DNA of 64,000 bases from Candidatus Iainarchaeum sp. (GCA_026397015.1 JAPLVR010000005.1:1-64000), one strand, 5' to 3'; shown: positions 18,409 to 38,731, counted from the first letter of the stretch. Notes: generated by a model not told the origin, from the letters alone. Numbers and translations: made by a program.

Positions 18409-18588
18409 CTAACCTTTTTAGAAAAAAGGTTAGCGAAAAAAAGCCTTCGGCACAGCCTTTTTTTCGAAAAAAGGCTGGCGAAAAAATTAACGAAAAAAGT
18501 TGGCGAAAAAATTAACGAAAAAAGTTGGCGAAAAAATTAACGAAAAAAGTTGGCGAAAAAATTTGGCGAAAAGAAGTTGGCGAAAAAA
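18409..18588 (+). repeat. REP-like hairpins plus a 25-bp tandem repeat
   Basis: Hairpins at 18409-18440 and 18453-18486, then (AAAAAATTAACGAAAAAAGTTGGCG)x3 and degenerate TTGGCGAAAA copies. Confidence 0.85.
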
Positions 18589-25327: not shown

Positions 25328-25476
25328 CAGCCTTTTTTCGTAAAAAGGCTGGCGAAAAACTAATTTCGCAAAAAGCATCATCTTCGCTGTTGCTCGATAG
25401 GGCTTGCCTTCGGCATTTTTCAAAAAAGGTTGGCGAAAAACTAAAATGGCGAAAAACTAAAAGTTGGCGAAAAAAC
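25328..25476 (+). repeat. REP-like hairpin cluster with GGCGAAAAAC tails
   Basis: Full copy at 25328-25358; partial copies to about 25476. Confidence 0.8.
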
Positions 25477-25531
25477 ATTTTTTTTGGCACTACAAAAAGT
25501 TTTATACTAGTTAGAGGCTTATCTAATCCGG

Positions 25532-25987
25532 ATGAAAAGAATTTTTTTTCTGCTGCTGGTTTTTGTGCAGTGTGTTTATGCCGCGTCAGCCAGCTGCAGC
25601 AGCTACGGCTTCAGTGCGGAAACTGTCAATCAGTCTTTCACCGCAACCTCGACAAAAATGGATTTCAATGTTTCATGCATCATTACCTCGCAAGTAACTT
25701 CTTTAAGATTTGAAACAATTGACGGCAAGCCGATTTCGGGCTCCGCAGTTCTTCCGCCTGATTGTTCAATAATTCCTTCAACTGTAAAAACTGAAATCAA
25801 TACAATCGAAGAAGGCACCTACGCCGCAATATTTTCCTGCAAAAATGCCGACCACAATTCAACCCTTTTTTTCACAATCCCGAAACAAAATCCTGCCGGC
25901 CTCTCAATTCCGGATTCAAACATGGTTTCTATTCTTTTTGCTTTGGGTTTTGTAAGCATTATTCTTGTGAGAAAAAGCAGAAGATAA
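25532..25987 (+). CDS. Secreted protein consisting of the shared C-terminal domain plus an IPDSN-TM-basic anchor
   Basis: Signal peptide; ends IPDSNMVSILFALGFVSIILVRKSRR. Confidence 0.8.
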   Translation: MKRIFFLLLVFVQCVYAASASCSSYGFSAETVNQSFTATSTKMDFNVSCIITSQVTSLRFETIDGKPISGSAVLPPDCSIIPSTVKTEINTIEEGTYAAIFSCKNADHNSTLFFTIPKQNPAGLSIPDSNMVSILFALGFVSIILVRKSRR

Positions 25988-26042
25988 TCTTCGACAAGTT
26001 TGACCAACTCTTTTTTATATTAGAAAAGCATTAAGTAGTTGT

Positions 26043-27752
26043 ATGCGAAAAATTATATCGAGTCTTTTAATCTTACTTCTTTTTCTCGTTTCTGCTTATT
26101 CTGGGGTGGAACAATGTGCTAGCGGTTACTTGTATAGGAGAGAGTTTTGTTATAGTAGTTGTGGTAGTGGGGGTTGCTGCAAAGATAAATGGGGTTTAGA
26201 TACAGACAATGGATTTTGTGCTCTTAATTCAACCGTGGCAACTAATATATTAAGAAATCAGTTGGGTTATCAAGGAAGTTTATGTAATATTGGAATTTTT
26301 TGTGATGATTTTTATCTTGGATGTAGCAGTACGCAACATAAAGTAATAATTTGCGCAAGAAGCACCCCTTCATACAATGTAGGCTATTGTGGTTTGGTGA
26401 ATGGCGGTTGGTCTGGTTGGAGTTATGGCGGTTGGGGTAATGTTGGTGGTTGTGGGAGTTATCAGTCGTGCAAGCAGAGGCAGGATAGGGCTCTGACTAG
26501 GAGTTGTAATAATCCTTCCCCTGCGTGTAGTGGTGCGGGTTGTTCTGGAAGTTCGTCAACAACCGAAACGCAGTATTTGAGTTGTGGTTCGGTGAATGGC
26601 GGTTGGTCTGGTTGGAGTAATAATGGTGGTTGTTCTTCGTGTGTGCAAAATCAGGTTAGGTCTTGTAATAATCCTGCTCCTGCTTGCAGTGGTGCTGCTT
26701 GTTCTGGGTCGAGTTCGCAGAATGTCAGTTGTGGTTCGGTAGCTGGTGGTTGGTCTGGTTTTGGTTCTTGGCATGATACTTCGGGCTGGGGTGCGTGTTC
26801 CGGTTGTTTGCAGTATAAGTCTCAGCAGAGGGACAGGAATTGTACTAATCCTTCTCCTGTTTGTGGCGGGGCAGCTTGTTCTGGACTTAGTTATGAAACC
26901 CGGTCAATTTCTCAGTCCTGTGGTGCGGTGAATGGTGGTTGGTCTGGTTGGAGCGATAGTGGTACTTGCGGGCAGTATGTTGCATGCAAGCAGAGGGAAG
27001 CGAGGGCTTGTAATAATCCTTCTCCTGTTTGTGGTGGTGCTGCTTGTTCTGGTTCGAGTACGCAGGACGTTAAGCCTTGCGGTCAGGGGATTTGTTCACC
27101 GGGTAGTCCGCCTCAGACGCAAATTTGCGGGCGTTGCGGCACCCAAAGCAGGAGTTGTAACAATACTTGCGGCTGGAGTAATTGGGGCCCGTGTACCGGG
27201 GAAACAGGGATTTGTTCAATTGGGGAAAAAAAAATCGGCAATGAGGAATGCGGTATTTGCGGTTTTCAATGGCTGGTTTGTGACGGGTCCTGCCTGTGGG
27301 GGAATGGAAATTGTGAAGAAGTTGGTTGCGGCAGCGGAGGTTCCCTGAATTGCCCAGAAATAGGAATTGAAGCAAAACTGGCAGGCGCAAGCATCAATGC
27401 AGGAACCGGAAGCACGCAGCTGGATTTCAACGTTGATTGTGTCGTGCGTGTAGATATTAATGAGATTTCTTTTGAAGATATCCAAGGGCAACCGATTAAC
27501 GGCGGTTCTATAGATGCTCTTCCATTTGGTTGTTCAAAAATCTCTTCCAAAATACAAACAGAAATTGACACAAATGCAGAAAAGAATTATGCGATAAACT
27601 TCTTTTATCTGAGCGGCAAATGCAGCAAAAAAATTTATTTTACAATCACCGACTTGAAGGAAACTTCAAACATCCCGGATTCAAATATTGCCGCTGTTCT
27701 TTTAGCCTTGGCATTCGTAAGCGTCATCCTGACAGGAAAAAGCAGAAAATAA
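26043..27752 (+). CDS. Cell-surface protein with thrombospondin type-1 repeats and an IPDSN-TM anchor
   Basis: Signal peptide; four V(N/A)GGWSG..C...R.C.NP.P.C.GA.CSG repeats; ends IPDSNIAAVLLALAFVSVILTGKSRK. Confidence 0.85.
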   Translation: MRKIISSLLILLLFLVSAYSGVEQCASGYLYRREFCYSSCGSGGCCKDKWGLDTDNGFCALNSTVATNILRNQLGYQGSLCNIGIFCDDFYLGCSSTQHKVIICARSTPSYNVGYCGLVNGGWSGWSYGGWGNVGGCGSYQSCKQRQDRALTRSCNNPSPACSGAGCSGSSSTTETQYLSCGSVNGGWSGWSNNGGCSSCVQNQVRSCNNPAPACSGAACSGSSSQNVSCGSVAGGWSGFGSWHDTSGWGACSGCLQYKSQQRDRNCTNPSPVCGGAACSGLSYETRSISQSCGAVNGGWSGWSDSGTCGQYVACKQREARACNNPSPVCGGAACSGSSTQDVKPCGQGICSPGSPPQTQICGRCGTQSRSCNNTCGWSNWGPCTGETGICSIGEKKIGNEECGICGFQWLVCDGSCLWGNGNCEEVGCGSGGSLNCPEIGIEAKLAGASINAGTGSTQLDFNVDCVVRVDINEISFEDIQGQPINGGSIDALPFGCSKISSKIQTEIDTNAEKNYAINFFYLSGKCSKKIYFTITDLKETSNIPDSNIAAVLLALAFVSVILTGKSRK

Positions 27753-27806
27753 TCTTCAACAAGTTTGACCATTTATTTTTTATATTAGAGAAGCGTTAAT
27801 TATGGC

Positions 27807-30146
27807 ATGCAAAAACTTGTTTTGTGTGCCTTATTTTTAGCCCTGTTATTGCTCTTTGTAAATGGTTATGATTGCGTGGATAGTCAGGGAAATTGGCTTC
27901 CAAATTTGGCACAGAAAATAGACCTTTCAGACTACAAAAATTGCGACGGGACGTCTCCAAAGTGTGGAGACATTGGGTTGTGCGGAAGCGCAGGAAGTTG
28001 TACTGGTACGGAGGTAACTGACGCTTGCACATATGACACGCCTTTAAAGAATCGTCCTTGTTTTAAGGGGGCAAGTGACTGCGAGAGGTGCCCATTTAGC
28101 AGCACGGTACTTTGCGGAAAAAGAGTTTACTGCGACACTTTTGGCACCCATGCATATCTTTGCACAAAACAAGACAATGGATGCAACAGCAGCTCATACT
28201 GTGCATGCACAATCCTTGGTGACTCAGCGTGTTGCAATGATTGTGGGATAAACAATTGCAATAATGATGGTGTCTGGAGCGGCTGTAGTTCAGTACTGAA
28301 TTATTATTCAGTAAATGTAACTTGCGTAGGGGGTACTCCGCTGCCCACAAGCTATTATACCTGCAGTTCTGGAACATCCGGTCAAGGAATCTGCAAGTCT
28401 GGATTACGCGATTGTGATTTGGGAGGGTGGTGGCATATTGTCGATAACCAAGTTTGTCCAAGTGTCGAAACTTGTAATGGTCTCAATGACGACTGTGATA
28501 GTTCGATTGATGAAGGAACTAATAAACTTTGCCGCGATGCAGATGGGGATGGTTATGGGAACCCAAATAATTCTATAATGACAGTTTGTACTCCTGGAGT
28601 AAGGGCAGGGGTTGGTTATGTTTGGGATTGTTCTGATTGTAATGATTCCAATCCAAGCGTGCACCCGGGGGCGCCTGAAAACGTTTGTAACGGTGTCAAT
28701 AATGATTGTGATGCTTCTTGCGACGAGGATGTCTTGCCTATCCAAAGTGATTGCGTTCAAATCGGTGAGTGTGCCGGTGCTGTTAAGCCCTGCAATTGCG
28801 GATCGTGGGGGGCCTGTTCAAAACTTCCACAAACCGAAATATGTGACGGCAACAAAGATAGGAGTTGTGATACTTATATTACAACTCACAGCCCTGTTTC
28901 AAATCCGCTTTCAGGAGGATTTGAGTGTGCGATAGACCGTTGGCTCGCAACAGACGCCACAATTTCTGGGCTTGTTTACAAAGGTGAATGCACTCCTGGC
29001 TGTAAAATCTGCATGAACAACAACGTAAACAGCCTTGTTCTTTCCAGCAATCCTGTTGACACGAATAATGTTTTTGCCCCCGCTTCGACCCAGTTCAGGG
29101 CGGATGTTTCCGCAAACAGCCCCAACAATTGTGTGATTGCTTTCAGGTACAGGCTTTTTTACAACGACGCCGATAATGTTGTTGATTGGGACGAGAACAA
29201 TTTGATTATTGGGTCTTCTTCAAAGATTCAGTATTTGGAGCATGTTTGGCGTTCTCCTATGAAGAATGATTTTGTTTCTTTTGGCTTGAAATGCATGGAT
29301 ATTAATTCCCATTACAAGGTTTCTTCCCAAGTGAGGGACCAGAAGAACGGGAGAAACATCAGCGGTTCCGCATATACTGTTAATGATTGGGTGGAGTCGA
29401 ATGTTCTCACTGTGAAAAATACCCCTCCCACAATTCCTGCCATTAGTCTTGTGAAAACAGGGTTGGGTACGGGGTCGAGCGCATTGGTTTGCACTTTGAG
29501 TGGTTCAGGAGACCCTGATGTTGATTGTAATTTTCAGATATTAACGTATTATGCGAGGATTTTTGAAGAGACTTCGCCCTCGGGCGACTTTGAGAAAACC
29601 CTTCCTGATGGAACTCTCACTTCTACTGTTCATGTGGATACGAATTATTGTTGTGAAGGATTTGCGGGCGACGGCGACTTTAATTCTTCGAGGAGAAAAA
29701 GCTGTACTTCCTATCAAGTAAGTCCTGTTCCCATACCAACTTGTGGTGATTATGGGTTACGTGCCGTTCTTGATGGTGCGCGAATAGGGGAAAACAGGGT
29801 CGATTTGGATTTCAATATTTTGTGCCTCTCGGATGCAAACATTTCTTCTGTTAAGTTCAAGGACACCGACAGCAAGGTTATTTCTGAAAACATTCTCAAC
29901 CCGCCCTTTATTTGTTCCTCTTCGGTAAAAAAAATTCTGACAGGAATGGATTCGAATGCGGAGGGAGTTTATGAAGCAATCTTTTCATATGCCGGCTTGG
30001 GCTGCACAAAATCGGTTTATTTTACAGTCATCACTCCCGAAAGCCCGATTTCGAATATGAGGGCAGTTCCGGATTCAAACTTTTTAGCCGTTTTTGTCGC
30101 GCTTCTGGTTGTGGTTGTGATTATTTCAACGGGCAAAAAGAAATAG
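27807..30146 (+). CDS. Cys-rich cell-surface protein with MopE-type putative metal-binding repeats and a VPDSN-TM anchor
   Basis: ETCNGLNDDCDSSIDEG, DADGDGYG and DCNDSNPSVHPGAPE motifs; ends VPDSNFLAVFVALLVVVVIISTGKKK. Confidence 0.85.
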   Translation: MQKLVLCALFLALLLLFVNGYDCVDSQGNWLPNLAQKIDLSDYKNCDGTSPKCGDIGLCGSAGSCTGTEVTDACTYDTPLKNRPCFKGASDCERCPFSSTVLCGKRVYCDTFGTHAYLCTKQDNGCNSSSYCACTILGDSACCNDCGINNCNNDGVWSGCSSVLNYYSVNVTCVGGTPLPTSYYTCSSGTSGQGICKSGLRDCDLGGWWHIVDNQVCPSVETCNGLNDDCDSSIDEGTNKLCRDADGDGYGNPNNSIMTVCTPGVRAGVGYVWDCSDCNDSNPSVHPGAPENVCNGVNNDCDASCDEDVLPIQSDCVQIGECAGAVKPCNCGSWGACSKLPQTEICDGNKDRSCDTYITTHSPVSNPLSGGFECAIDRWLATDATISGLVYKGECTPGCKICMNNNVNSLVLSSNPVDTNNVFAPASTQFRADVSANSPNNCVIAFRYRLFYNDADNVVDWDENNLIIGSSSKIQYLEHVWRSPMKNDFVSFGLKCMDINSHYKVSSQVRDQKNGRNISGSAYTVNDWVESNVLTVKNTPPTIPAISLVKTGLGTGSSALVCTLSGSGDPDVDCNFQILTYYARIFEETSPSGDFEKTLPDGTLTSTVHVDTNYCCEGFAGDGDFNSSRRKSCTSYQVSPVPIPTCGDYGLRAVLDGARIGENRVDLDFNILCLSDANISSVKFKDTDSKVISENILNPPFICSSSVKKILTGMDSNAEGVYEAIFSYAGLGCTKSVYFTVITPESPISNMRAVPDSNFLAVFVALLVVVVIISTGKKK

Positions 30147-30218: not shown

Positions 30219-30330
30219 CAGCCTTTTTGCAAAAGGCTGGCGAAAACCACTGCCTTGAGGCAGTGGATGAAGCCTGTTGGCTTCTGTGATTAAACCAGTG
30301 GAAGCCGCACACTTTAGTGTGCGGTAATTC
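30219..30330 (+). mobile_element. REP hairpin plus IS200/IS605-end-like hairpins (non-autonomous remnant)
   Basis: CCACTGCC-TTGA-GGCAGTGG and GAAG-CCGCACAC-TTTA-GTGTGCGG-TAATTC; no transposase nearby. Confidence 0.5.
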
Positions 30331-30440
30331 GCCTTCGAGGCATAAGCCGATTGCTTCTTTTGTTCTCCAGCAGCCGCATTATTTAACACCACTTTTAGTA
30401 AAAACACCAATTTTTATTCTTTTTGGTGTTAATTGTTTTT

Positions 30441-31415
30441 ATGTTTGTTTCAAAGCGTAAGATTGGCAAAAAATATTATTTTTACTTAGAGGACCGAATA
30501 GTTGGCAAAAGAGTTAGTTTTTCTTTAGGGCGAAAAGAAGGTGTGAACAAAAAAATTGGCGGGGCCTTTGATTCTTTGGTTCAAAAAACTGCTTTAGAAA
30601 ATTTAAAGATTTCTCAAAAAAGATTTGATGTCAGTTGTTTATCTTTGAATGAATTACTTGCTCTTGAAAGGCTAAAAGTTGATTATTCGTTATTGAGAGA
30701 TTTTTTTCCCAAAGAATTTGAATCCTTTAAAGAAGATGAGTTTGTCAGGTATGCGCAAGGGAGTGCAGCTGTTGAAGGCAACTCTTTGAGTTTGCAGGAG
30801 GCAAATTTGGTTTTGAGCAAGGGGATTTCAATTTCCGGAAAAAAAGTGGATGAAATAAGGGAAATCGAGAATATGCGTTTTGCCGCAGAAGCATCAAAGA
30901 ACATAAAGGAAATAAATGAGAGGAACATAAAAAAAATTCATTCAGCAATCATGCGCGGCTTTGATGATAAAAAACCCGGGGAATATCGTGACGGCCCGAT
31001 GTTTATTACTGGTTCAACTACTAAGCCGCCTAATGCAGAACAGATTCCGAAAGAAATGGGGAAATTATTGGCTTGGCTTAACAAAAACAACGAACGTAAC
31101 CATCCGGTTGAATTAGCGGCAGAATTTCACGCTCGTTTTGAAGAAATTCACCCGTTTTTGGATGGCAACGGCAGAACGGGAAGGGAATTTCTTAATGTAA
31201 TGCTTCAAAACGCCGGTTATTCAAGAGCAATAATAAACTTGGAAAACAGGCAAAACTACGTTGTTTTGCTTGAAAGGGTCCAAGCAAACAGAGAATGCGG
31301 CAAATTTTCAAAATTTATTTATTTGTGCCTGGAAAAAAGGGCACAAGAAATAAATAATGCAATAAAAGAAAACAAACAGGCGATTCTAAAAAAACTTTTG
31401 AAAAAGGCGGGTTAA
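30441..31415 (+). CDS. Fic domain protein (class II, with N-terminal inhibitory helix)
   Basis: HPFLDGNGRTGR active-site motif; SAAVEGN matches the (S/T)xxxE(G/N) inhibitory motif. Confidence 0.92.
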   Translation: MFVSKRKIGKKYYFYLEDRIVGKRVSFSLGRKEGVNKKIGGAFDSLVQKTALENLKISQKRFDVSCLSLNELLALERLKVDYSLLRDFFPKEFESFKEDEFVRYAQGSAAVEGNSLSLQEANLVLSKGISISGKKVDEIREIENMRFAAEASKNIKEINERNIKKIHSAIMRGFDDKKPGEYRDGPMFITGSTTKPPNAEQIPKEMGKLLAWLNKNNERNHPVELAAEFHARFEEIHPFLDGNGRTGREFLNVMLQNAGYSRAIINLENRQNYVVLLERVQANRECGKFSKFIYLCLEKRAQEINNAIKENKQAILKKLLKKAG

Positions 31416-31663
31416 AATGAAAAAAATGGGTGTGAACGCATCCCACTACCAACAACGAATCTCTAACTACCAGCCAAGTGGAAAAGAGTTCGTTTTCTTT
31501 GCCGTATTTTTTGCAACACAACTAATTAACCGTAAATAGTGCCTTATTTTTGAGTGGTTTAAAAAGGCATTTGATTAGGGTTTAAAAGCTTTGCTGGTGC
31601 AAAGATGATAGTGGGTTGGGCAGCTAGGTGGCTGTTTTAATTGATTTTTTGGGGGTAATTAAG

Positions 31664-34600
31664 GTGGGTCACAAGGGTTTGGGTGAAGTTTTTTCAGTAG
31701 TATTAGTTTTAATCTTTTTAATTTCGATGTCGGCGAGCGTTTTTGCTGCAAGTGTTACTTCATCACCAAGTATTGGTGGTACAAGTGTGCATTCCCCTGG
31801 CGATGTTAATTGGTCTGGAGTAGCAAATATTTACGCGTCGGATAACGCATATGCAACTTCAACAGTTGATGACTATCAACACACACATTACTTAACCGCA
31901 ACTGGTTTTGATTTTAGTTCGATACCAACCAATGCGGTAATTACTGGAATTACTGCAACAATTGAAAGGAAAGTTAGTTCCACTTCAGGGGGTTCTGAAG
32001 TTCAAGATGATCATGTGAGAATTATAAAGGGTGGAGTGATACAAACTTCTGCTGATGATAAAGCTAGTGGCACACATTACACAACTAGTGACGTTAGTGC
32101 TATTTATGGTGGAGCAACAGACTCATGGGATGCAGGGTTAACTACCACTGACATAAAAGCCTCAAACTTTGGTATTGCTCTCGTTTCTGAAAAAGCTAAT
32201 GACGACAGTGGTAGCAGAACAGTTTCCGTCGATTATATTGCTGTTACAGTAACCTACACAATCCCGCACACAATTACAGCTTCTGCTGACGCGGGCGGAA
32301 CTATTTCGCCGAGTGGCGCAGTCTCGGTTGCGGACGGCACAAGCAAAACCTTTACAATTACTCCTACTTCGGGGAATGTTGTTTCGGACGTTCTTGTCGA
32401 CAGCGCTTCACAAGGACGAAGCAACAGTTATACATTCACCAATGTCACTACCGACCACACAATAGCGGCGAGTTTTGACGACGGATGGTATGCTCCGAAT
32501 GCGAATGTAAATAGTACGTTTGAGTATGCGGGTAGAGCGTATATATCAAACGATAGTTATGCCGACACGGACCATAGCAATAGAATTGTTGAATACACTA
32601 CATTTAACATTCCAGCAATTCCTGTCGGTGCCACAATCAACGGTATTGAAGTGGCTCTTGAAGGAAAAACAACTGGAAGAAATTTGACTGTTGCGCTCTC
32701 AAAGAATGGAGGCAGTTCATATGGAGCTACCACCTACAATACTGTGTTCGCATCTACCGATAAAACTGTAATTATAGGAAACCCATCGACTACATGGGGC
32801 CAAAGTTGGATATCGAATAATTTTACTGATGCTAATTTCAGAGTAAAGATCACGTCAGGAAGTGGTAGTTCGAGTACTGTTTCGTTGGATCAACTCCAAG
32901 TGAAAGTTTATTACACTTCGGACGCAACTCCTCCAACTATTGATCATGTTGATGACATAGTTGCGGAAGCCACAAGCGCGGAAGGCGCTTTGGTTACAAT
33001 TACTCCTCCGATGTCTCACGACGACGTGGATGGAGATATTCCATCATCTTGTGATTATGCAACGGGAACGTTCCCTTTGGGGACAACAACTGTTACTTGT
33101 CAAAAAACAGACAGTGCCGGAAACGGGCCAGTTTTTGAAATATTTACCGTAACGGTGCAGGATACTACAGATCCTGTTTTGACCGTTCCTTCTGATATTA
33201 CTGAAGAGGCGGTTTCTGCTGCAGGAAACAATGTTTCGTTTTCAGTGAGTGCGACGGATCTTGTTGATTCTAGCGTAAGTATTGTTTGCAGTGCCAACAG
33301 CGGAGATTTGTTCCCTATTGGAACAACAACTGTAATTTGCACGGCAACAGATGATTATGCAAATTCAACAATAGAAACATTTGATATAATAGTGCAACAC
33401 TTAGCGGGGCCGGAGATCACGGTTCCTTTCGATATAACCGTTGAAGCGGATTCGTTAGGCGGCGGCACAATAGTTAATTTTAGTGCCAGCGCAAACGATG
33501 TTGTAGATGGCTCGGCAACAGTTAGCTGTGTGCCTGCTTCAGGATCAGTATTCCCGCTTGGAACGACAGTTGTTTCATGCGATTCGACTGATTTACACGG
33601 CAATACTTCAGTAAAAAAATTTAGTGTAATTGTTCAGGACACTAGCGCTCCGGTATTAGTAATCCCTGGGGACATTACTGAGGAAGCAACCTCATCAGCA
33701 GGTGCTGATGTAATATATGTTGTTACTGCGGTTGATGTGGTAGATGGTTCAACTGTGGTTGACTGTGTGCCTCTTTCAGGATCAACATTTTCTTTAGGAA
33801 CTACTACAGTAGATTGTTCAACAAGTGATGCAGCATTAAACACTGCAACAGGATCGTTTAAAGTAACAGTTGAAGACACAACTGCGCCTGACTTAACTGT
33901 TCCTGCGGATATTGTTGAAGAAGCAACTTCTCCGTTGGGGAATAATGTTTCATTCATAGTAACGGCAACGGATCTTGTTGATGATAGTGTGGATATTATT
34001 TGCACTCCAGCTAGTGGGGATTTATTTGCTATTGCAACTACTTTGGTGAGTTGTACTGCAACAGACGATTATGCAAATCCAGTAACAAAAACATTCAACG
34101 TAACCGTGCAAGATACTATTGCACCGGTTTCATACATTACTAATCCAACAGGAATCAAAACGGTTCTTGATGGAAAAGTTATAATTTCCGGAACGGCTGA
34201 GGACAGCGGTTCTGGAATAAACAGGGTTCTCATCCAGATAATGGAAGACGGCGTTTTTGTTCATTCAGGAATAGCTGACGGAACAGCCGATTGGGCATAT
34301 ACTTGGGATGCAAGAGGCCTTGCAAACGGAAAAAGTTATTTGATTAAATCGGTTGCGGTTGATAATGCAACTAACGTAGAGCCAGACGCGAACGTGTTGA
34401 TATTCAAACTTGATTATTCAACACCGACAATAGATAATGTGTATCACACAGTTGCGGGAACGAAATATGTTTTGGTTTCAGGATATCTTGATTTCCAAAA
34501 TGTTGATTACGATGTAGAAATAGTTGATTCGACAAATATCGACGGGTCTGCATTGTACACATTCCCTGTAACAACCGATGAAAACGGTTTCTTTTCAGTT

Positions 34601-37600
34601 GACATCGACACAAGCGCGTGGGATTTAAGCAATCTCTATATTGCAAAGGCTGTTGGGGGAGAAAAATACGTTTCTCCGACAGAATTGACAGGATTGTATC
34701 TGAGCTATCAAGTAGAAGCGTTGAATGCAAGAATTGATGTAACGAACGCAAGGCTTGACTTGGCAGATGCGAACATAGTCGATTTGTGGCAGTTAGCAAA
34801 AGATTTGAATGCTGTTGACCAGAATTTGCAGGATCAGATTGACGCATTGAGCGCAAGAGTGAATGACCTGAGCGGCGAAATAATAATTATTCAGGGTCAG
34901 ATTGCGGACATGAGCGTCGAAATCGGCGAGATTCAAGCTCACTTGGATTTAGTTGATGCGGATCTTACGGGAATTTGGAGTGAGATAGTAAATATTAAAG
35001 ATCAAATAGAAGCGATGAATCATGGAACAGTTAACATTGAATTTAGGCAGAATACAATGAAATTGGATGTTTCCGGTGAAGCTCCGATTGGTTCAACAAC
35101 AGTAACATTGAAATTTTTTAAATCAACCAGCCCTTCAACACAATATGGTTCGGCATATACGACTCCGGTTGTAACTAGCGGGGCAAATGGTAATGCGTAT
35201 CTTTTTACGCAAGCGAATGGAAATGCTATCAATGTATCTGCTTTCGATCCGGCAATCTACAACCTAGAAGTGTCATTTGGAATGCCCGGCGGAGGATACT
35301 TGGTTTACACGGTATTCAGTGAACTTTTGCTAATCGAAACTGAATCAAGGACAACGCAGTTGGAAATTGATGTGGACACAATCAATCAGCAAATAACTGA
35401 TTTAAATGAACAAGACGCTAATTTCCAAATACAACTAAACAATGTTTACGCGCAGTTGGCAGTTCATGACCAAAATATAATCGATTTAGCGCAATCAATT
35501 AGCGACATCAATACGGCTCTTAATTCACGAATCGATGATTTGAATTTAGAGCTAATCGCGCAGGTGGCAAGGCTCGATGCACGAATCGATGCGCTTGATG
35601 CGAGACTAACAGCATTAGAAAATATTGTAGATGCGATGAATCACGGAACAATTTCACTGAATTACAGAAAAGATTTAGACAGATTAAGAGTTAAAGGTGA
35701 GGCTCCGGAAGGCGCTGTAACCGCGATAATTCACATAAGGGATTTGGACGGGACAACTGTTCAATCAGATGTTTCTGTGACGGTTGATACGACTGACAAT
35801 TCATACACAAAGGATATTGATGTTAGTTCGTGGTCGGCGCAGGTTTACGACATCGGAGTCGAATTCAAAGACTCTGGAGACGCAACAATAGGGCAATGGG
35901 TTAATGCGCAATTTTATGCATTGGCTGTTCTTGCGGATTTCCAGGGATTTGGCTTCATTGAAGACAAAACTTTCGAGTATTTCTTGGTGTTGCCAAACAC
36001 AAGAGCAATTGCCTTTGACTTTGGGGCAATAACCGAAGGTCAATATGATTTCAATTTAGTTCTGAGCAACGGAATATCAGTAAGCCAAATGCTTTTGAGT
36101 TCGCACGTTGCGAAGTACAGCGGGCAGGAATTTAACACAAGGTTTGTGCTTCCCGAGAAAGGAAACTATTCCGCGAATTTAATTGCATATAATGGGGACA
36201 CGGCGGAAACTATTGTAAGCAACGACTTCAACATTGAAATTGTTGATATGTTCGATGCGTTAAAAGGAGAAATAAATATTTCTTCTCCGGCTTACAACGA
36301 TAACGTGTATTCAGCGCAAGCGAATACGTTCTACACAAATGAGGACTTTAATTTAGCTGCGGTAATTGGGACAACAAATCTTGGTTCCTATTGTGCAGTG
36401 AGATTAGTCGGAAATGATGAGCAATTCTTGGCCGTGCCGTCAATTGCAAACTATGTTTGTTCAACCATGGCGTTCAAAAATAGAATGCTTGGAGATCTTG
36501 AAGGGCTTTTCTTAATTTCAGTTGAAAGTCCTGTGAACAATCTTGTAAAAGCGGATTTCAATTTGGGGATTGATTATACGAAACCAAGTTTCCCAGATTC
36601 AAACGCAGAAGCAATAATGCCAGCTATTGGTGCTTTCAGCGGAGTATTGCACATTGATGTAAATACTTGGGACACTTTGTCAGGTGTTGACACGGTAGTA
36701 ATTGAAATGATTGACAAAGATACTGACGCAGTCGTTTCTTCGGCATATGCCGATTATAATGCTGCTACTGGTTTTTGGAATCACGATTTCAACACAGTAT
36801 TTTTGGGAATACCTGATGGGGCTTACGACATAAAGACAATAGTGACCGATGTTGCAGGAAACTCTGATAATAGGATTGTTGATCCGGGTGTTGACAATAC
36901 CAAGCCGGTAATCAATTCAATCGTGTTTTCAAGTAACCCAATATTAAGAAATTCAACGGTAACAGTTGACGCAAATGTTAGTGACAACTTTGCAGGGGTA
37001 AAAGAAGTTAAGGCAGTTATTACTGATGGAAGTACTGTCCAGAATTTGGTTCTTTCGAGAACAAGCGGCAGTATTTTGAGCGGTATTTGGTCTGCAGACT
37101 TTAACGTAGATACAACTTGGGATGCGGGAATATACACTATTGTTGTGGATGCAAATGATTTTGCAATACCATCAAATAGTGCTATGTCCTTGTCCGGGAA
37201 TGTAAACGTGTTGAAGAACTATTACTTCAACGTTTCCGACCAGAGCAAACAAATTGCTTCCGAAACTACCACAACATTTGCTGTTGATGGCAACTTCAGG
37301 GACGATTTGGGAAATGTTCCTGCTGCGAACACAATCTTGATAACAAGCAATGTTGTTTCCGCTGTAAGTGTTCAGTTCGACGGGAATGGTTTGTTCACAA
37401 TAACCACAAATAGTTTAAATGTGGGAACATACTACGTTGATTTGAACTACAATACAAATGATTACAACTACACTGCAAGAGCCACTTTGAGTGTAAGCAA
37501 TCCTGCTCAACCGGCAGAAACTGGCGGTGCAGGCGGAGGCAGTGGCGGGATACCATCAGCTCAAACATGCGCATCATTCACATATTCGGATTGGGGTGCG

Positions 37601-37921
37601 TGTAGTGCAAACGGACAACAGACAAGAACTGTTGTTTCTGCTTTGCCAAATGGGTGCGTAGATGGGGCTCCTGTACTAATACAGTTATGCACGCCTCCGG
37701 CAACTGGGGGAACAACTCCTGTGACTGGCGGAGAAACAACTCCGACTGGTGGAGAGACCACTCCTACTGGTGGAGAAACAACTCCTCCGGTAGCAGCTCC
37801 TCCAACCGGGCCGACTGGTCTCTTTGAATTGGGCGCCAATGCGGAAACCCTTGGAATAGGCGCACTTGCAGTGATACTGCTCGGCGGCATAGGGTATTTT
37901 GTCTGGAAAAAGAAAAAATAG
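31664..37921 (+). CDS. Giant cell-surface adhesin: HYR/Ig-like repeats, two coiled-coil stalks, TSP1-like module, Thr/Pro linker, C-terminal TM
   Basis: Signal peptide; about five DTT.P.L.VP.DI..EA...FP.GTT.V.C HYR repeats; heptad regions; PTGLF followed by TM and KKKK. GTG start inferred (ORF open from 31628). Confidence 0.85.
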   Translation: MGHKGLGEVFSVVLVLIFLISMSASVFAASVTSSPSIGGTSVHSPGDVNWSGVANIYASDNAYATSTVDDYQHTHYLTATGFDFSSIPTNAVITGITATIERKVSSTSGGSEVQDDHVRIIKGGVIQTSADDKASGTHYTTSDVSAIYGGATDSWDAGLTTTDIKASNFGIALVSEKANDDSGSRTVSVDYIAVTVTYTIPHTITASADAGGTISPSGAVSVADGTSKTFTITPTSGNVVSDVLVDSASQGRSNSYTFTNVTTDHTIAASFDDGWYAPNANVNSTFEYAGRAYISNDSYADTDHSNRIVEYTTFNIPAIPVGATINGIEVALEGKTTGRNLTVALSKNGGSSYGATTYNTVFASTDKTVIIGNPSTTWGQSWISNNFTDANFRVKITSGSGSSSTVSLDQLQVKVYYTSDATPPTIDHVDDIVAEATSAEGALVTITPPMSHDDVDGDIPSSCDYATGTFPLGTTTVTCQKTDSAGNGPVFEIFTVTVQDTTDPVLTVPSDITEEAVSAAGNNVSFSVSATDLVDSSVSIVCSANSGDLFPIGTTTVICTATDDYANSTIETFDIIVQHLAGPEITVPFDITVEADSLGGGTIVNFSASANDVVDGSATVSCVPASGSVFPLGTTVVSCDSTDLHGNTSVKKFSVIVQDTSAPVLVIPGDITEEATSSAGADVIYVVTAVDVVDGSTVVDCVPLSGSTFSLGTTTVDCSTSDAALNTATGSFKVTVEDTTAPDLTVPADIVEEATSPLGNNVSFIVTATDLVDDSVDIICTPASGDLFAIATTLVSCTATDDYANPVTKTFNVTVQDTIAPVSYITNPTGIKTVLDGKVIISGTAEDSGSGINRVLIQIMEDGVFVHSGIADGTADWAYTWDARGLANGKSYLIKSVAVDNATNVEPDANVLIFKLDYSTPTIDNVYHTVAGTKYVLVSGYLDFQNVDYDVEIVDSTNIDGSALYTFPVTTDENGFFSVDIDTSAWDLSNLYIAKAVGGEKYVSPTELTGLYLSYQVEALNARIDVTNARLDLADANIVDLWQLAKDLNAVDQNLQDQIDALSARVNDLSGEIIIIQGQIADMSVEIGEIQAHLDLVDADLTGIWSEIVNIKDQIEAMNHGTVNIEFRQNTMKLDVSGEAPIGSTTVTLKFFKSTSPSTQYGSAYTTPVVTSGANGNAYLFTQANGNAINVSAFDPAIYNLEVSFGMPGGGYLVYTVFSELLLIETESRTTQLEIDVDTINQQITDLNEQDANFQIQLNNVYAQLAVHDQNIIDLAQSISDINTALNSRIDDLNLELIAQVARLDARIDALDARLTALENIVDAMNHGTISLNYRKDLDRLRVKGEAPEGAVTAIIHIRDLDGTTVQSDVSVTVDTTDNSYTKDIDVSSWSAQVYDIGVEFKDSGDATIGQWVNAQFYALAVLADFQGFGFIEDKTFEYFLVLPNTRAIAFDFGAITEGQYDFNLVLSNGISVSQMLLSSHVAKYSGQEFNTRFVLPEKGNYSANLIAYNGDTAETIVSNDFNIEIVDMFDALKGEINISSPAYNDNVYSAQANTFYTNEDFNLAAVIGTTNLGSYCAVRLVGNDEQFLAVPSIANYVCSTMAFKNRMLGDLEGLFLISVESPVNNLVKADFNLGIDYTKPSFPDSNAEAIMPAIGAFSGVLHIDVNTWDTLSGVDTVVIEMIDKDTDAVVSSAYADYNAATGFWNHDFNTVFLGIPDGAYDIKTIVTDVAGNSDNRIVDPGVDNTKPVINSIVFSSNPILRNSTVTVDANVSDNFAGVKEVKAVITDGSTVQNLVLSRTSGSILSGIWSADFNVDTTWDAGIYTIVVDANDFAIPSNSAMSLSGNVNVLKNYYFNVSDQSKQIASETTTTFAVDGNFRDDLGNVPAANTILITSNVVSAVSVQFDGNGLFTITTNSLNVGTYYVDLNYNTNDYNYTARATLSVSNPAQPAETGGAGGGSGGIPSAQTCASFTYSDWGACSANGQQTRTVVSALPNGCVDGAPVLIQLCTPPATGGTTPVTGGETTPTGGETTPTGGETTPPVAAPPTGPTGLFELGANAETLGIGALAVILLGGIGYFVWKKKK

Positions 37922-37933
37922 TTATTTAAAACG

Positions 37934-37977
37934 ATGAAGGGGGTCGGGTTTTCCGCCCTTTCATTTCTCTTTTTTTA
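37934..37977 (+). terminator. Hairpin + T-tract terminator
   Basis: ATGAAGGGG...CCCTTTCAT stem followed by a T-rich run. Confidence 0.5.
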
Positions 37978-38181
37978 ATTAATTTCTTTCCTTTTTTTTA
38001 ATTGTTTTTTTCTTGTTCTTCTTAGTTTTTTTTAATTGCGCTTCTTTTTTTGGGGGTTACAAGGTGTAACCAAACGGAGATGAATAAAATGTCCGGTACA
38101 AATTGTACATGCCCTTTCAGTTGATACGGGGGGGAACCTTATTTTGGGACGGGTAGAGTTTGGCAGGCGCCAAAAGGTTTT

Positions 38182-38200
38182 TATATACGCAGAGTATATA
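38182..38200 (+). promoter_or_regulatory. Probable autoregulatory operator overlapping the TATA box of the TA operon
   Basis: Perfect inverted repeat TATATAC-GCAGA-GTATATA. Confidence 0.5.
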
Positions 38201-38221
38201 TTGAATGTATGGTGGTGTTGT

Positions 38222-38461
38222 ATGGTACAGGCAATGGTAGATATCCCGAAAGAAGCGAATCAGATTTTGAATATTGTTAAGGCAAGGCATAACTTGAAGA
38301 CGAAAAGCGACGCGATTTCATTGGTGGTCAAGGAGTATGGTGCGAATCTGCTTGAATCTAATCTTCGGCCGGATTATTTAGAAAAACTTGCAAATTTTGA
38401 GGCAGAAAAGGGAGTTGCTTTTAAAAATATCGGCGGGCTAAAGAAATTGATTGAGGGATAA
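38222..38461 (+). CDS. Antitoxin (DUF2683-like)
   Basis: MVQAMVDI..ANQILNIVKA..LKTKSDAI; immediately upstream of a RelE-like gene. Confidence 0.8.
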   Translation: MVQAMVDIPKEANQILNIVKARHNLKTKSDAISLVVKEYGANLLESNLRPDYLEKLANFEAEKGVAFKNIGGLKKLIEG

Positions 38462-38464
38462 GGC

Positions 38465-38731
38465 ATGCGCTCTTATGAAATTCTTCCTTCGCTGCTTAAA
38501 ACGCTTCAGAAATTATCCAAAAAGAATAATTCGTTATATCTGCAAGTCATGAAAAAGATCGAAGAGATTATTGAAACGGCGGATGTTGAGCATTACAAAA
38601 ACCTTCGGCACGACATGAAAGAATTGAAACGCGTGCATGTGGGACATTTTGTGCTGGTTTTTGAGTACAAGAAATGGGAAGATAAAATAATTTTTAAAGA
38701 TTTTGACCACCACGACAACATTTATTGTTGA
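38465..38731 (+). CDS. RelE/ParE-family toxin
   Basis: HYKNLRHDMKELKRVHVGHFVLVF and DFDHHDNIY motifs. Confidence 0.85.
   Translation: MRSYEILPSLLKTLQKLSKKNNSLYLQVMKKIEEIIETADVEHYKNLRHDMKELKRVHVGHFVLVFEYKKWEDKIIFKDFDHHDNIYC

Follow-up and report, generated by a model that had tools for sequence, protein, structure and literature searches.

The DPANN archaea are generally regarded as living in attachment to other cells, and how their surface proteins are anchored and varied is little understood. Three tandem genes of Candidatus Iainarchaeum sp. (GCA_026397015.1) raise the question of whether such proteins carry a dedicated sorting signal at the C-terminus and, if they do, which enzyme could act on it. 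The genes occupy positions 25532 to 30146 of the stretch that we analyzed (JAPLVR010000005.1:1-64000; C3:1-64000 in our contig numbering), a window of 64,000 nucleotides (nt) from a genome of 0.9 Mb in 6 contigs that is 85% complete. A first-pass annotation had described a common C-terminal domain in the three products, followed by a PDSN motif, a transmembrane (TM) helix and a basic tail, and had proposed an undescribed sorting system that carries exchangeable adhesin heads. For comparison, we used a collection of 215 species genomes of the phylum Diapherotrites/Iainarchaeota (DPANN), of which 196 belong to the window's order. We show that the genes form an array of secreted, C-terminally anchored and fast-diverging surface proteins and that, at the level of sequence, their tail is an uncatalogued tripartite element widespread in the order. 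By analogy with characterized systems, we regard it as fairly probable that this tail is an archaeosortase-type sorting signal on variable adhesins.

Three tandem surface-protein genes share a stalk and a tail

Three open reading frames (ORFs) of 151, 569 and 779 amino acids (aa) lie in tandem, with exactly the coordinates of the first-pass annotation. The genes and the parts of their products are as follows (E values for stalks and tails refer to a stalk-only hidden Markov model (HMM) and a tail model, respectively; Ig, immunoglobulin).

25532..25987, + strand: gene 1, 151 aa; headless, with the Ig-like stalk (aa 21-116) between the signal peptide and the IPDSN-TM-basic tail
25907..25984, + strand: gene 1 tail; IPDSN, 16 uncharged residues, RKSRR (E 3.7e-12)
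26043..27752, + strand: gene 2, 569 aa; the signal peptide precedes an N-terminal part rich in Cys, four TSP1 repeats, a Cys-rich linker, the stalk and the tail
26391..27077, + strand: gene 2 TSP1 region, aa ~117-345, with four WSGWS-type repeats (phmmer against PDB)
27324..27650, + strand: gene 2 Ig-like stalk (E 6.1e-28)
27672..27749, + strand: gene 2 tail; IPDSN, 17 uncharged residues, KSRK (E 2.0e-13)
27807..30146, + strand: gene 3, 779 aa; after the signal peptide, a head rich in Cys that includes a MopE-type repeat, then a middle part matching no known family, and the stalk and tail
28635..28727, + strand: gene 3 MopE-type putative metal-binding Cys repeat, aa 277-307 (PF11617, 30.4 bits, cut-off 27)
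29703..30032, + strand: gene 3 Ig-like stalk (E 1.3e-31)
30066..30143, + strand: gene 3 tail; VPDSN, 17 uncharged residues, KKK (E 6.1e-12)

The alignment of the last ~150 aa of the three proteins is invariant in 27 columns, among them C..C..G..A, DFN..C, F, I, P..CS, T, E..Y...F, FT and PDSN, and the ORFs and the alignment thus agree with the common domain, motif, TM helix and basic tail originally described. By inspection, the N-termini (MKRIFFLLLVFVQCVYA..., MRKIISSLLILLLFLVSAYS... and MQKLVLCALFLALLLLFVNG...) are signal-peptide-like. Public calls place the starts of genes 2 and 3 further downstream (products of 452 and 756 aa), so that the signal peptides are lost, and one 779-aa call of the same length as the gene 3 ORF also exists; proteins of relatives are labelled 'hypothetical protein' by NCBI.

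Gene 1 consists of signal peptide, domain and tail only, as had been claimed. Its AlphaFold2 model, built on a 21-row alignment, has a mean predicted local distance difference test score of 85.7. In this model, aa 21-116 fold into a 7-strand beta sandwich, which a linker of low confidence connects to a helix (aa 129-150) starting at the motif. A Foldseek comparison of the stalk with PDB gave generic Ig-like matches only (best E 3.9e-3). Comparable stalk-only proteins of 144-192 aa are present in relatives, and a homologue search with gene 1 at near-equal length returned only the gene 1 product itself. In gene 2, the repeats follow the GGWSGWS...C...R.R.CNNP.P..GG..C pattern of TSP1 repeats, and phmmer against PDB aligned aa 172-352 with thrombospondin-1 (E 1.2e-11), UNC5B (2.2e-11) and properdin (3e-10). 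The TSP1 assignment of the first-pass annotation is therefore sound, though Pfam gave no match to these repeats even at E 10, TSP_1 models included. The MopE-type repeat of gene 3, likewise predicted, scored above the Pfam gathering score. A weak fourth match to the stalk profile elsewhere in the genome (C5:39990-40148, E 0.016, profile positions 62-113) contains one in-frame TGA and may be a decayed copy or a chance match.

Upstream of each gene lies a putative promoter element.

25500..25507, + strand: TATA-like box TTTTATAC, read from the sequence, 25 nt 5' of the gene 1 ATG
26011..26024, + strand: TTTTTTATATTAGA box, copy 1, in the duplicated spacer, 18 nt 5' of the gene 2 ATG
27776..27789, + strand: TTTTTTATATTAGA box, copy 2, 17 nt 5' of the gene 3 ATG

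TTTTATAC is likely an archaeal promoter for a leaderless mRNA of gene 1, and the TTTTTTATATTAGA boxes stand 17-19 nt 5' of the ATGs of genes 2 and 3; each array gene would have its own promoter, with a TATA-like box about 17-30 nt 5' of the ATG, and leaderless transcripts are predicted to begin 23-30 nt 3' of such boxes. The last 80 nt of genes 1 and 2, the spacer and the TTTTTTATATTAGA box are duplicated, and the core of this duplication (25971-26006 versus 27736-27771) is 34/36 identical, as first reported. Because gene end, spacer and box are all duplicated, the array must have grown by tandem duplication. This raises the possibility that the tails are alike solely as a result of recent duplication and that the motif has no function of its own. 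The near-identity of the copies that follow genes 1 and 2 speaks for such an origin, but the explanation is contradicted by the same motif and geometry on non-homologous proteins in at least 99 genomes and 45 genera, described below, and we consider it very improbable.

The tail recurs throughout the order

We searched for the tail beyond the array with three models. From 1.84 billion proteins, a profile of stalk plus tail retrieved just 26 cluster representatives, of which 23 end in [IV]PD[SNAT][NS]-TM-basic. In the 21-protein stalk alignment, identity to gene 1 ranges from 38% down to 15%, and the P and D of the motif are the sole invariant columns. A tail-only model of 32 positions matched 34 of the 38 genomes of the window's own family at E <= 0.05, with 1-5 matches per genome. 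Two of the four negative genomes (G005 and G007) have sub-threshold VPDNN, IPDNN, IPDIN or IPDNS tails, and no tail was found in the other two (G009 and G032).

Weak matches in other families proved to be tails with E in place of D (NIPETN, VPETN, VPETS and LPETN), together with VPDAN. A model widened accordingly detected the tail at E <= 0.01 in at least 99 of the order's 196 genomes (at most 7 matches in one genome) and in 45 of 73 sampled genera (G000 included); these tail-model genome counts are lower bounds. Outside the order, 2 of 19 genomes from the other orders of the phylum gave weak matches. The motif of the first-pass annotation is therefore kept well beyond the three paralogs, but not as an exact PDSN: the signal is broader, of the general form [IVL]P[DE]x[NS]-TM-basic, with variants such as IPDNN, VPETN, LPETN and VPDAN.

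To describe the geometry we used the set of 35 tails on which the widened model was built. Part of this set had been selected with a regular expression that requires the motif, so its geometry is partly given by construction. P is present in 35/35 tails and is followed by D in 29 and E in 6; I or V precedes it in 32/35, and N or S stands at position +3 in 34/35. An uncharged run of 15-18 residues comes next, then 2-6 K/R, and the P lies 22-32 residues from the C-terminus. The three parts (motif, hydrophobic stretch and basic cluster) are present in 3/3 window proteins and in 35/35 tails of the set. From these sequences, chance can be excluded as the source of the similarity among tails.

The tail lies outside the catalogued sorting signals

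We compared the three window tails and the 35-tail set with the curated CTERM models of NCBIfam, and no tail reached any of them. For PEF-CTERM (TIGR03024), which had been named at the outset as a model that might cover the tail, there was no match at E <= 10 to any window tail (0/3), and 2 of the 35 set tails matched with E >= 0.02; the tail thus stands outside this model and equally outside every other curated CTERM model. Loki-CTERM (NF033507) gave 16.3 bits on the gene 1 tail, against a cut-off of 19.9, through model positions 7-26 (the hydrophobic part) only, and did not match genes 2 and 3. Within the 35-tail set, sub-threshold matches went to Loki-CTERM (8 tails, best E 0.0017), Heimdall-CTERM (8, best E 0.0041), PEF-CTERM (2, best E 0.02) and PEP-CTERM, VPXXXP-CTERM and PEFG-CTERM (1 each). 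On this comparison, sortase-type signals appear to be the sole, faint resemblance of these tails.

In the same genome, at least seven further surface-type proteins end in a TM helix and basic residues but have no motif in common. No known CTERM signal was found on these proteins, apart from one generic LPXTG_anchor match that is described with the flanking genes. Literature searches pairing archaeosortase or CTERM terms with the names of these lineages retrieved no description of such a signal or system, and the term 'pacearchaeosortase' was not met in the literature searched.

Two archaeosortases are encoded elsewhere in the genome

No sortase gene is present in the 64-kb window, in agreement with the first-pass annotation; two lie on contig C5 of the same genome. 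The product of C5:301152-301733, hereafter the carS-linked sortase, scored 31.8-33.9 bits with TIGR04178 (cut-off 23) and 26.1-27.7 bits with PF09721 (cut-off 25.7), and that of C5:96816-97388, the second paralog, scored 35.5-39 bits with TIGR04178. Neither reached the cut-off of a named subfamily (ArtA-F, pace- and heimdall-). For the carS-linked sortase, the scores were 44.9 bits for ArtD (cut-off 125), 28 for heimdallarchaeosortase (130), 24.8 for paceosortase (80) and 14.5 for ArtA (75); the best for the second paralog was XrtX, with 30.3 bits (cut-off 170). C102, N141 and R144 do not vary in 15 sequences covering both types. All 13 carS-linked sequences share H162, and in the second type (4 rows) a His stands three or four columns earlier (FAHD, FTHD or LAHD). 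A rhomboid or rhombosortase route was rejected, as the genome contains no match to PF01694 in its 85% complete assembly.

The carS-linked sortase gene overlaps the end of carS, which encodes CDP-archaeol synthase (PF01864, 107.6 bits), and a gene for a DUF92 membrane protein lies 5' of carS. We found carS directly 5' of the sortase gene in 23/23 loci from seven families (15/15 loci of the window's family, 2/2 named relatives and 6/6 genomes of six other families). Because this gene order is conserved, it suggests that the sortase may be co-expressed with CDP-archaeol synthesis. The whole string of DUF92, carS and small archaeosortase (C5:299982-301733) is conserved, with SecDF convergent downstream in most loci.

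In 12 of 15 loci of the family, the sortase gene has a tail gene at a distance of 3-4 kb, and the stretch reads DnaJ ... kinase-like gene, small ribosomal-protein-like gene, ribosomal S3Ae, DUF92, carS and sortase. An operon of tail gene and sortase was considered and rejected, since what separates the two is a conserved series of housekeeping genes, and the genome of the window has no tail gene at this place. The same region contains a gene for a protein of 160-190 aa with no Pfam family, located between dnaJ and a RIO-like kinase gene (C5:297335-297901 and orthologues). In 14 of 15 loci, this protein has a Cys at or near its last residue (...KIC, ...EQKC or ...LEELC), and in relatives its gene adjoins a tail-bearing surface gene.

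Sorting signal or plain membrane anchor

The same features could be those of type I membrane proteins with a plain C-terminal membrane anchor, in which PD(S/N)N is an uncleaved helix cap or a juxtamembrane contact (e.g. with the S-layer or with lipid head groups) that was inherited together with the stalk. Several observations favor this explanation or weigh against a sorting signal. In the gene 1 model the motif falls exactly at the start of the predicted helix (residue 129), and P-D-S/N-N in this position could cap the helix at the membrane surface. Within the family, almost all tails follow one kind of stalk end (C.K..YF); stalk and tail there largely form a single module, and conservation of the tail among these genomes could reflect shared descent of that module. 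In its own genome the tail is borne by the three paralogs only, next to the at least seven surface-type proteins that use motif-free ends, and the regularity of the 35-tail set is in part a product of the motif-demanding expression. The proximity of tail gene and sortase in relatives counts for little in view of the housekeeping genes between them and of its absence from the genome of the window. In the complete genome G179 of family f32, no full motif was found, only LPESL and VPDQP before two C-terminal helices.

Other evidence is difficult to reconcile with a plain anchor. P and D/E are each kept in 35/35 tails while stalk identity drops to 15%, and the tail occurs on proteins of unrelated domains with no detectable stalk. 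The short hydrophobic stretch (15-18 residues) and its fixed spacing to the end are as in sortase-type signals, and the weak sub-threshold matches all point to CTERM sorting models. In addition, the genome encodes two intact archaeosortases that are otherwise left without a recognisable substrate. We therefore judge a plain anchor to be unlikely, and a sorting signal the better reading of the tail. An undescribed PDSN-CTERM system, as first proposed, is upheld as to the uncatalogued tail and the presence of archaeosortases in the genome, but not as to the exact motif, which is broader, or its reach within the genome, where carriers are just the three paralogs.

We next asked, for this sorting signal, what the co-occurrence of tail and sortases indicates. 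Counts were tallied by hand over genomes that are related, non-independent and incomplete (55-99%). The carS-linked sortase was found in 184 and the second paralog in 149 of the 196 genomes of the order. Genomes with the carS-linked sortase were tail-positive in 97/184 cases and those lacking it in 2/12; the corresponding values for the second paralog were 83/149 and 16/47. Because both sortases are near-universal in the order, co-occurrence hardly discriminates, and 87 genomes that have the carS-linked sortase show no tail at E <= 0.01. The link between tail and sortase therefore consists of analogy and weak co-occurrence. For the check proposed at the outset, co-occurrence with an archaeosortase or rhomboid paralog, archaeosortases are present and 97/99 tail-positive genomes have the carS-linked one, the discrimination is poor, and no rhomboid was found in the genome of the window.

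The counts slightly favor the carS-linked enzyme, which could well be the one that acts on the tail. The cognate enzyme of the sorting signal might also be the second paralog or another, unrecognised protease. The second paralog retains the Cys and Arg, its His is placed three or four alignment columns N-terminal to the one in the carS-linked type, and it is present in 83/99 tail-positive genomes; moreover, the carS-linked sortase is so universal (184/196) that it may have another core substrate. Nevertheless, the second paralog is missing (E <= 1e-10) from 16 tail-positive genomes, 5 of them of the window's family, compared with 2 for the carS-linked sortase. It was found in 0/7 genomes of family f26, including both that are tail-positive, and it is present in 14 f32 genomes among those listed and in 11/22 genomes of f3, where the tail is missing or rare. 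Genome completeness of 55-99% weakens the counts on both sides. On balance, this alternative seems distinctly improbable.

Family f32 keeps the carS-sortase pair with a diverged sortase (32% identity). A whole-genome tail scan of G179 revealed no new recurrent motif, and the f32 pattern is compatible with a signal that has drifted.

Tail, stalk and heads are modular

Across the order, the tail is found on otherwise unrelated proteins (with PKD/VWA, CBM96, Ig, MopE or TSP1 domains, or none), which is not the case within the genome of the window. We inspected 9 tail carriers from three other families, and 9/9 have signal-peptide-like N-termini. Their Pfam content is PKD and VWA, CBM96, Big_9/CARDB/PKD, or none, and the stalk was detected in 1/9, a count to be read with the insensitivity of the stalk-only HMM, which missed its own training row L027, so that its negatives are weak evidence for a tail without a stalk. 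Internal stalks that lack the motif are also found (three in L010, two in L014), and large family members beside dnaJ contain MopE or PKD domains.

The locus is syntenic in the congener G001 (Alba gene, winged helix-turn-helix gene, array and a 434-aa gene). Flanking proteins are 79-87% identical between the two genomes, compared with 35-55% for the array proteins. The congener has two array genes, not three, and lacks a stalk-only gene. One of its two array genes matches gene 3 from aa 294 on only (55% identity), and the other matches gene 2 over the last 219 aa only (40%). Invariant heads would have spoken against the exchangeability claimed earlier; at this locus, the heads differ. The heads diverge and are replaced far more quickly than the flanking genes, which would fit a role in contact with hosts or surfaces.

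A proposed model of lipid anchoring and its implications

These observations can be combined in the following model. Each protein is built from four parts: a Sec signal peptide, a head that varies from gene to gene, a constant Ig-like stalk close to the membrane and the tripartite tail, here in the [IV]PDSN form of the order-wide signal, the head being absent in gene 1, composed of TSP1 repeats in gene 2 and of MopE-type Cys repeats in gene 3; we infer that the heads serve attachment. After export through the Sec signal peptide, the tail would hold the protein in the membrane, and an archaeosortase would recognise the Pro-Asp/Glu motif at the outer membrane face. It would cut there through its Cys/Arg/His site and pass the protein on to a lipid built on archaeol, by analogy with ArtA and its PGF-CTERM proteins. 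By this analogy, an archaeosortase probably cleaves the tail and places the protein on lipid. The small archaeosortase directly behind carS (C5:301152-301733) is the better candidate for the enzyme. Tentatively, we picture an order-wide, uncatalogued system in which a small archaeosortase, coupled to carS in transcription, recognises an [IVL]P[DE]x[NS]-CTERM signal and places fast-evolving, head-swapping adhesins (TSP1, MopE, PKD, VWA or CBM heads on a constant Ig stalk) on archaeol lipid, the array serving as a changeable toolkit for meeting hosts or surfaces.

If the tail is indeed an archaeosortase signal, lipid anchoring of the archaeosortase type would extend to the Diapherotrites, and a simple rule ([IVL]P[DE]x[NS], short helix, K/R) would list the exposed surface proteome of ~200 species. 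The pairing of carS and sortase would also be a direct handle on the lipid donor, a question that is open even for ArtA. The TSP1 repeats, a typical animal adhesion module, are here found on an archaeal surface protein.

Repeats and genes around the array

An Alba gene adjoins the array locus, according to a domain scan of the window, and Rfam and tRNA scans found no RNA families or tRNAs between 23000 and 32000. Repeats lie on both sides of the array.

25344..25481, + strand: dispersed intergenic repeat with core GGYTGGCGAAAA, 4 copies in register, upstream of the array
30219..30330, + strand: four short hairpins 3' of gene 3; a terminator or an element like the repetitive extragenic palindromic (REP) sequences is possible, with no Rfam match

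The first hairpin overlaps one copy of the dispersed repeat (30229-30248). The 12-mer core GGYTGGCGAAAA has 30 copies on 5/6 contigs of the 0.9 Mb genome, compared with ~0.2 expected by chance. Because the core is dispersed across the genome, the repeats at 25344-25481 and 30229-30248 are not markers of the array, and a role as cassette borders was ruled out. The REP clusters that had been reported to bracket the array are thus real as repeats, but not as array-specific borders. Across the genome, copies often stand in small tandem clusters and beside hairpins. Within the window, GGYTGGCGAAAA sites occur at 223, 266, 18473, 24026, 25347, 25428, 30235, 40421(-) and 56185(-), and 18476-18578 contains six TGGCGAAAA cores.

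Directly 3' of the array, the region 30423-38731 contains a Fic-domain gene (30423-31415), a gene for a 2097-aa surface protein (31628-37921) and two small ORFs (38222-38731); the G001 locus lacks the Fic gene, the gene for this HYR protein and the small gene pair. In the 2097-aa protein, HYR domains are accompanied by long repeats that resemble coiled coils, and the C-terminal helix, which ends in KKKK, comes without a P[DE] motif. The isolated tail of this protein matched the LPXTG_anchor model with 18.3-19 bits (cut-off 15.9); we rejected this match, as the tail has no LPXTG motif and the whole protein scored 11.5 bits.

Comparison with known sorting systems

The best characterized relative of the proposed system is PGF-CTERM/ArtA of Haloferax volcanii, in which, as here, a tripartite C-terminal signal is found on Sec-exported surface proteins. 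Archaeosortase substrates are described as bearing tripartite tails, and ArtA cleaves these proteins and anchors them to lipid (PMC6098224). ArtA and the enzymes of the window's genome are all members of the exosortase/archaeosortase family, whose active-site residues are conserved. The motif differs, being [IVL]P[DE]x[NS] here, and 0/35 tails match the PGF-CTERM model at E <= 1. The sortase is also different, with ~165-195 aa and a score far from the ArtA cut-off (14.5 bits compared with 75), and processing of the tail is proposed here by analogy.

The gene neighborhood offers a further parallel. In Methanosarcina, artA adjoins the phospholipid synthesis genes pssA and pssD (artA-pssA-pssD), and both pssA and pssD are needed for ArtA-dependent processing in Haloferax (PMC7157517); here, the sortase gene stands beside carS.

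The tail also resembles better known motifs. In VPEP and PEF, as in the tail, a hydrophobic residue, Pro and an acidic residue directly precede the helix, and Haft et al. are said to have paired ArtC with PEF-CTERM in 2012. The tail differs from PEF-CTERM (TIGR03024) and PEP-CTERM (TIGR02595) in its preference for Asp over Glu (29 versus 6) and in the Asn/Ser two residues later. The closest models by score are Loki-CTERM (NF033507), Heimdall-CTERM (NF045529) with heimdallarchaeosortase, and pacearchaeosortase (NF033505), which represent lineage-specific archaeal signals or small archaeosortases; however, scores here are far below their cut-offs (19.9 for Loki-CTERM; 130 and 80 for the sortases), and their lineages are not Diapherotrites. 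Among named subfamilies, ArtD (TIGR04175) is the best match of the carS-linked enzyme and similarly small, with an alignment that covers model positions 4-134 of 150. At 44.9 bits, however, the enzyme misses the ArtD cut-off (125) by a wide margin and so is no member of that subfamily. Taken together, the archaeosortase-type system is known as a class, and what is new here is the motif and an unclassified small sortase coupled to carS.

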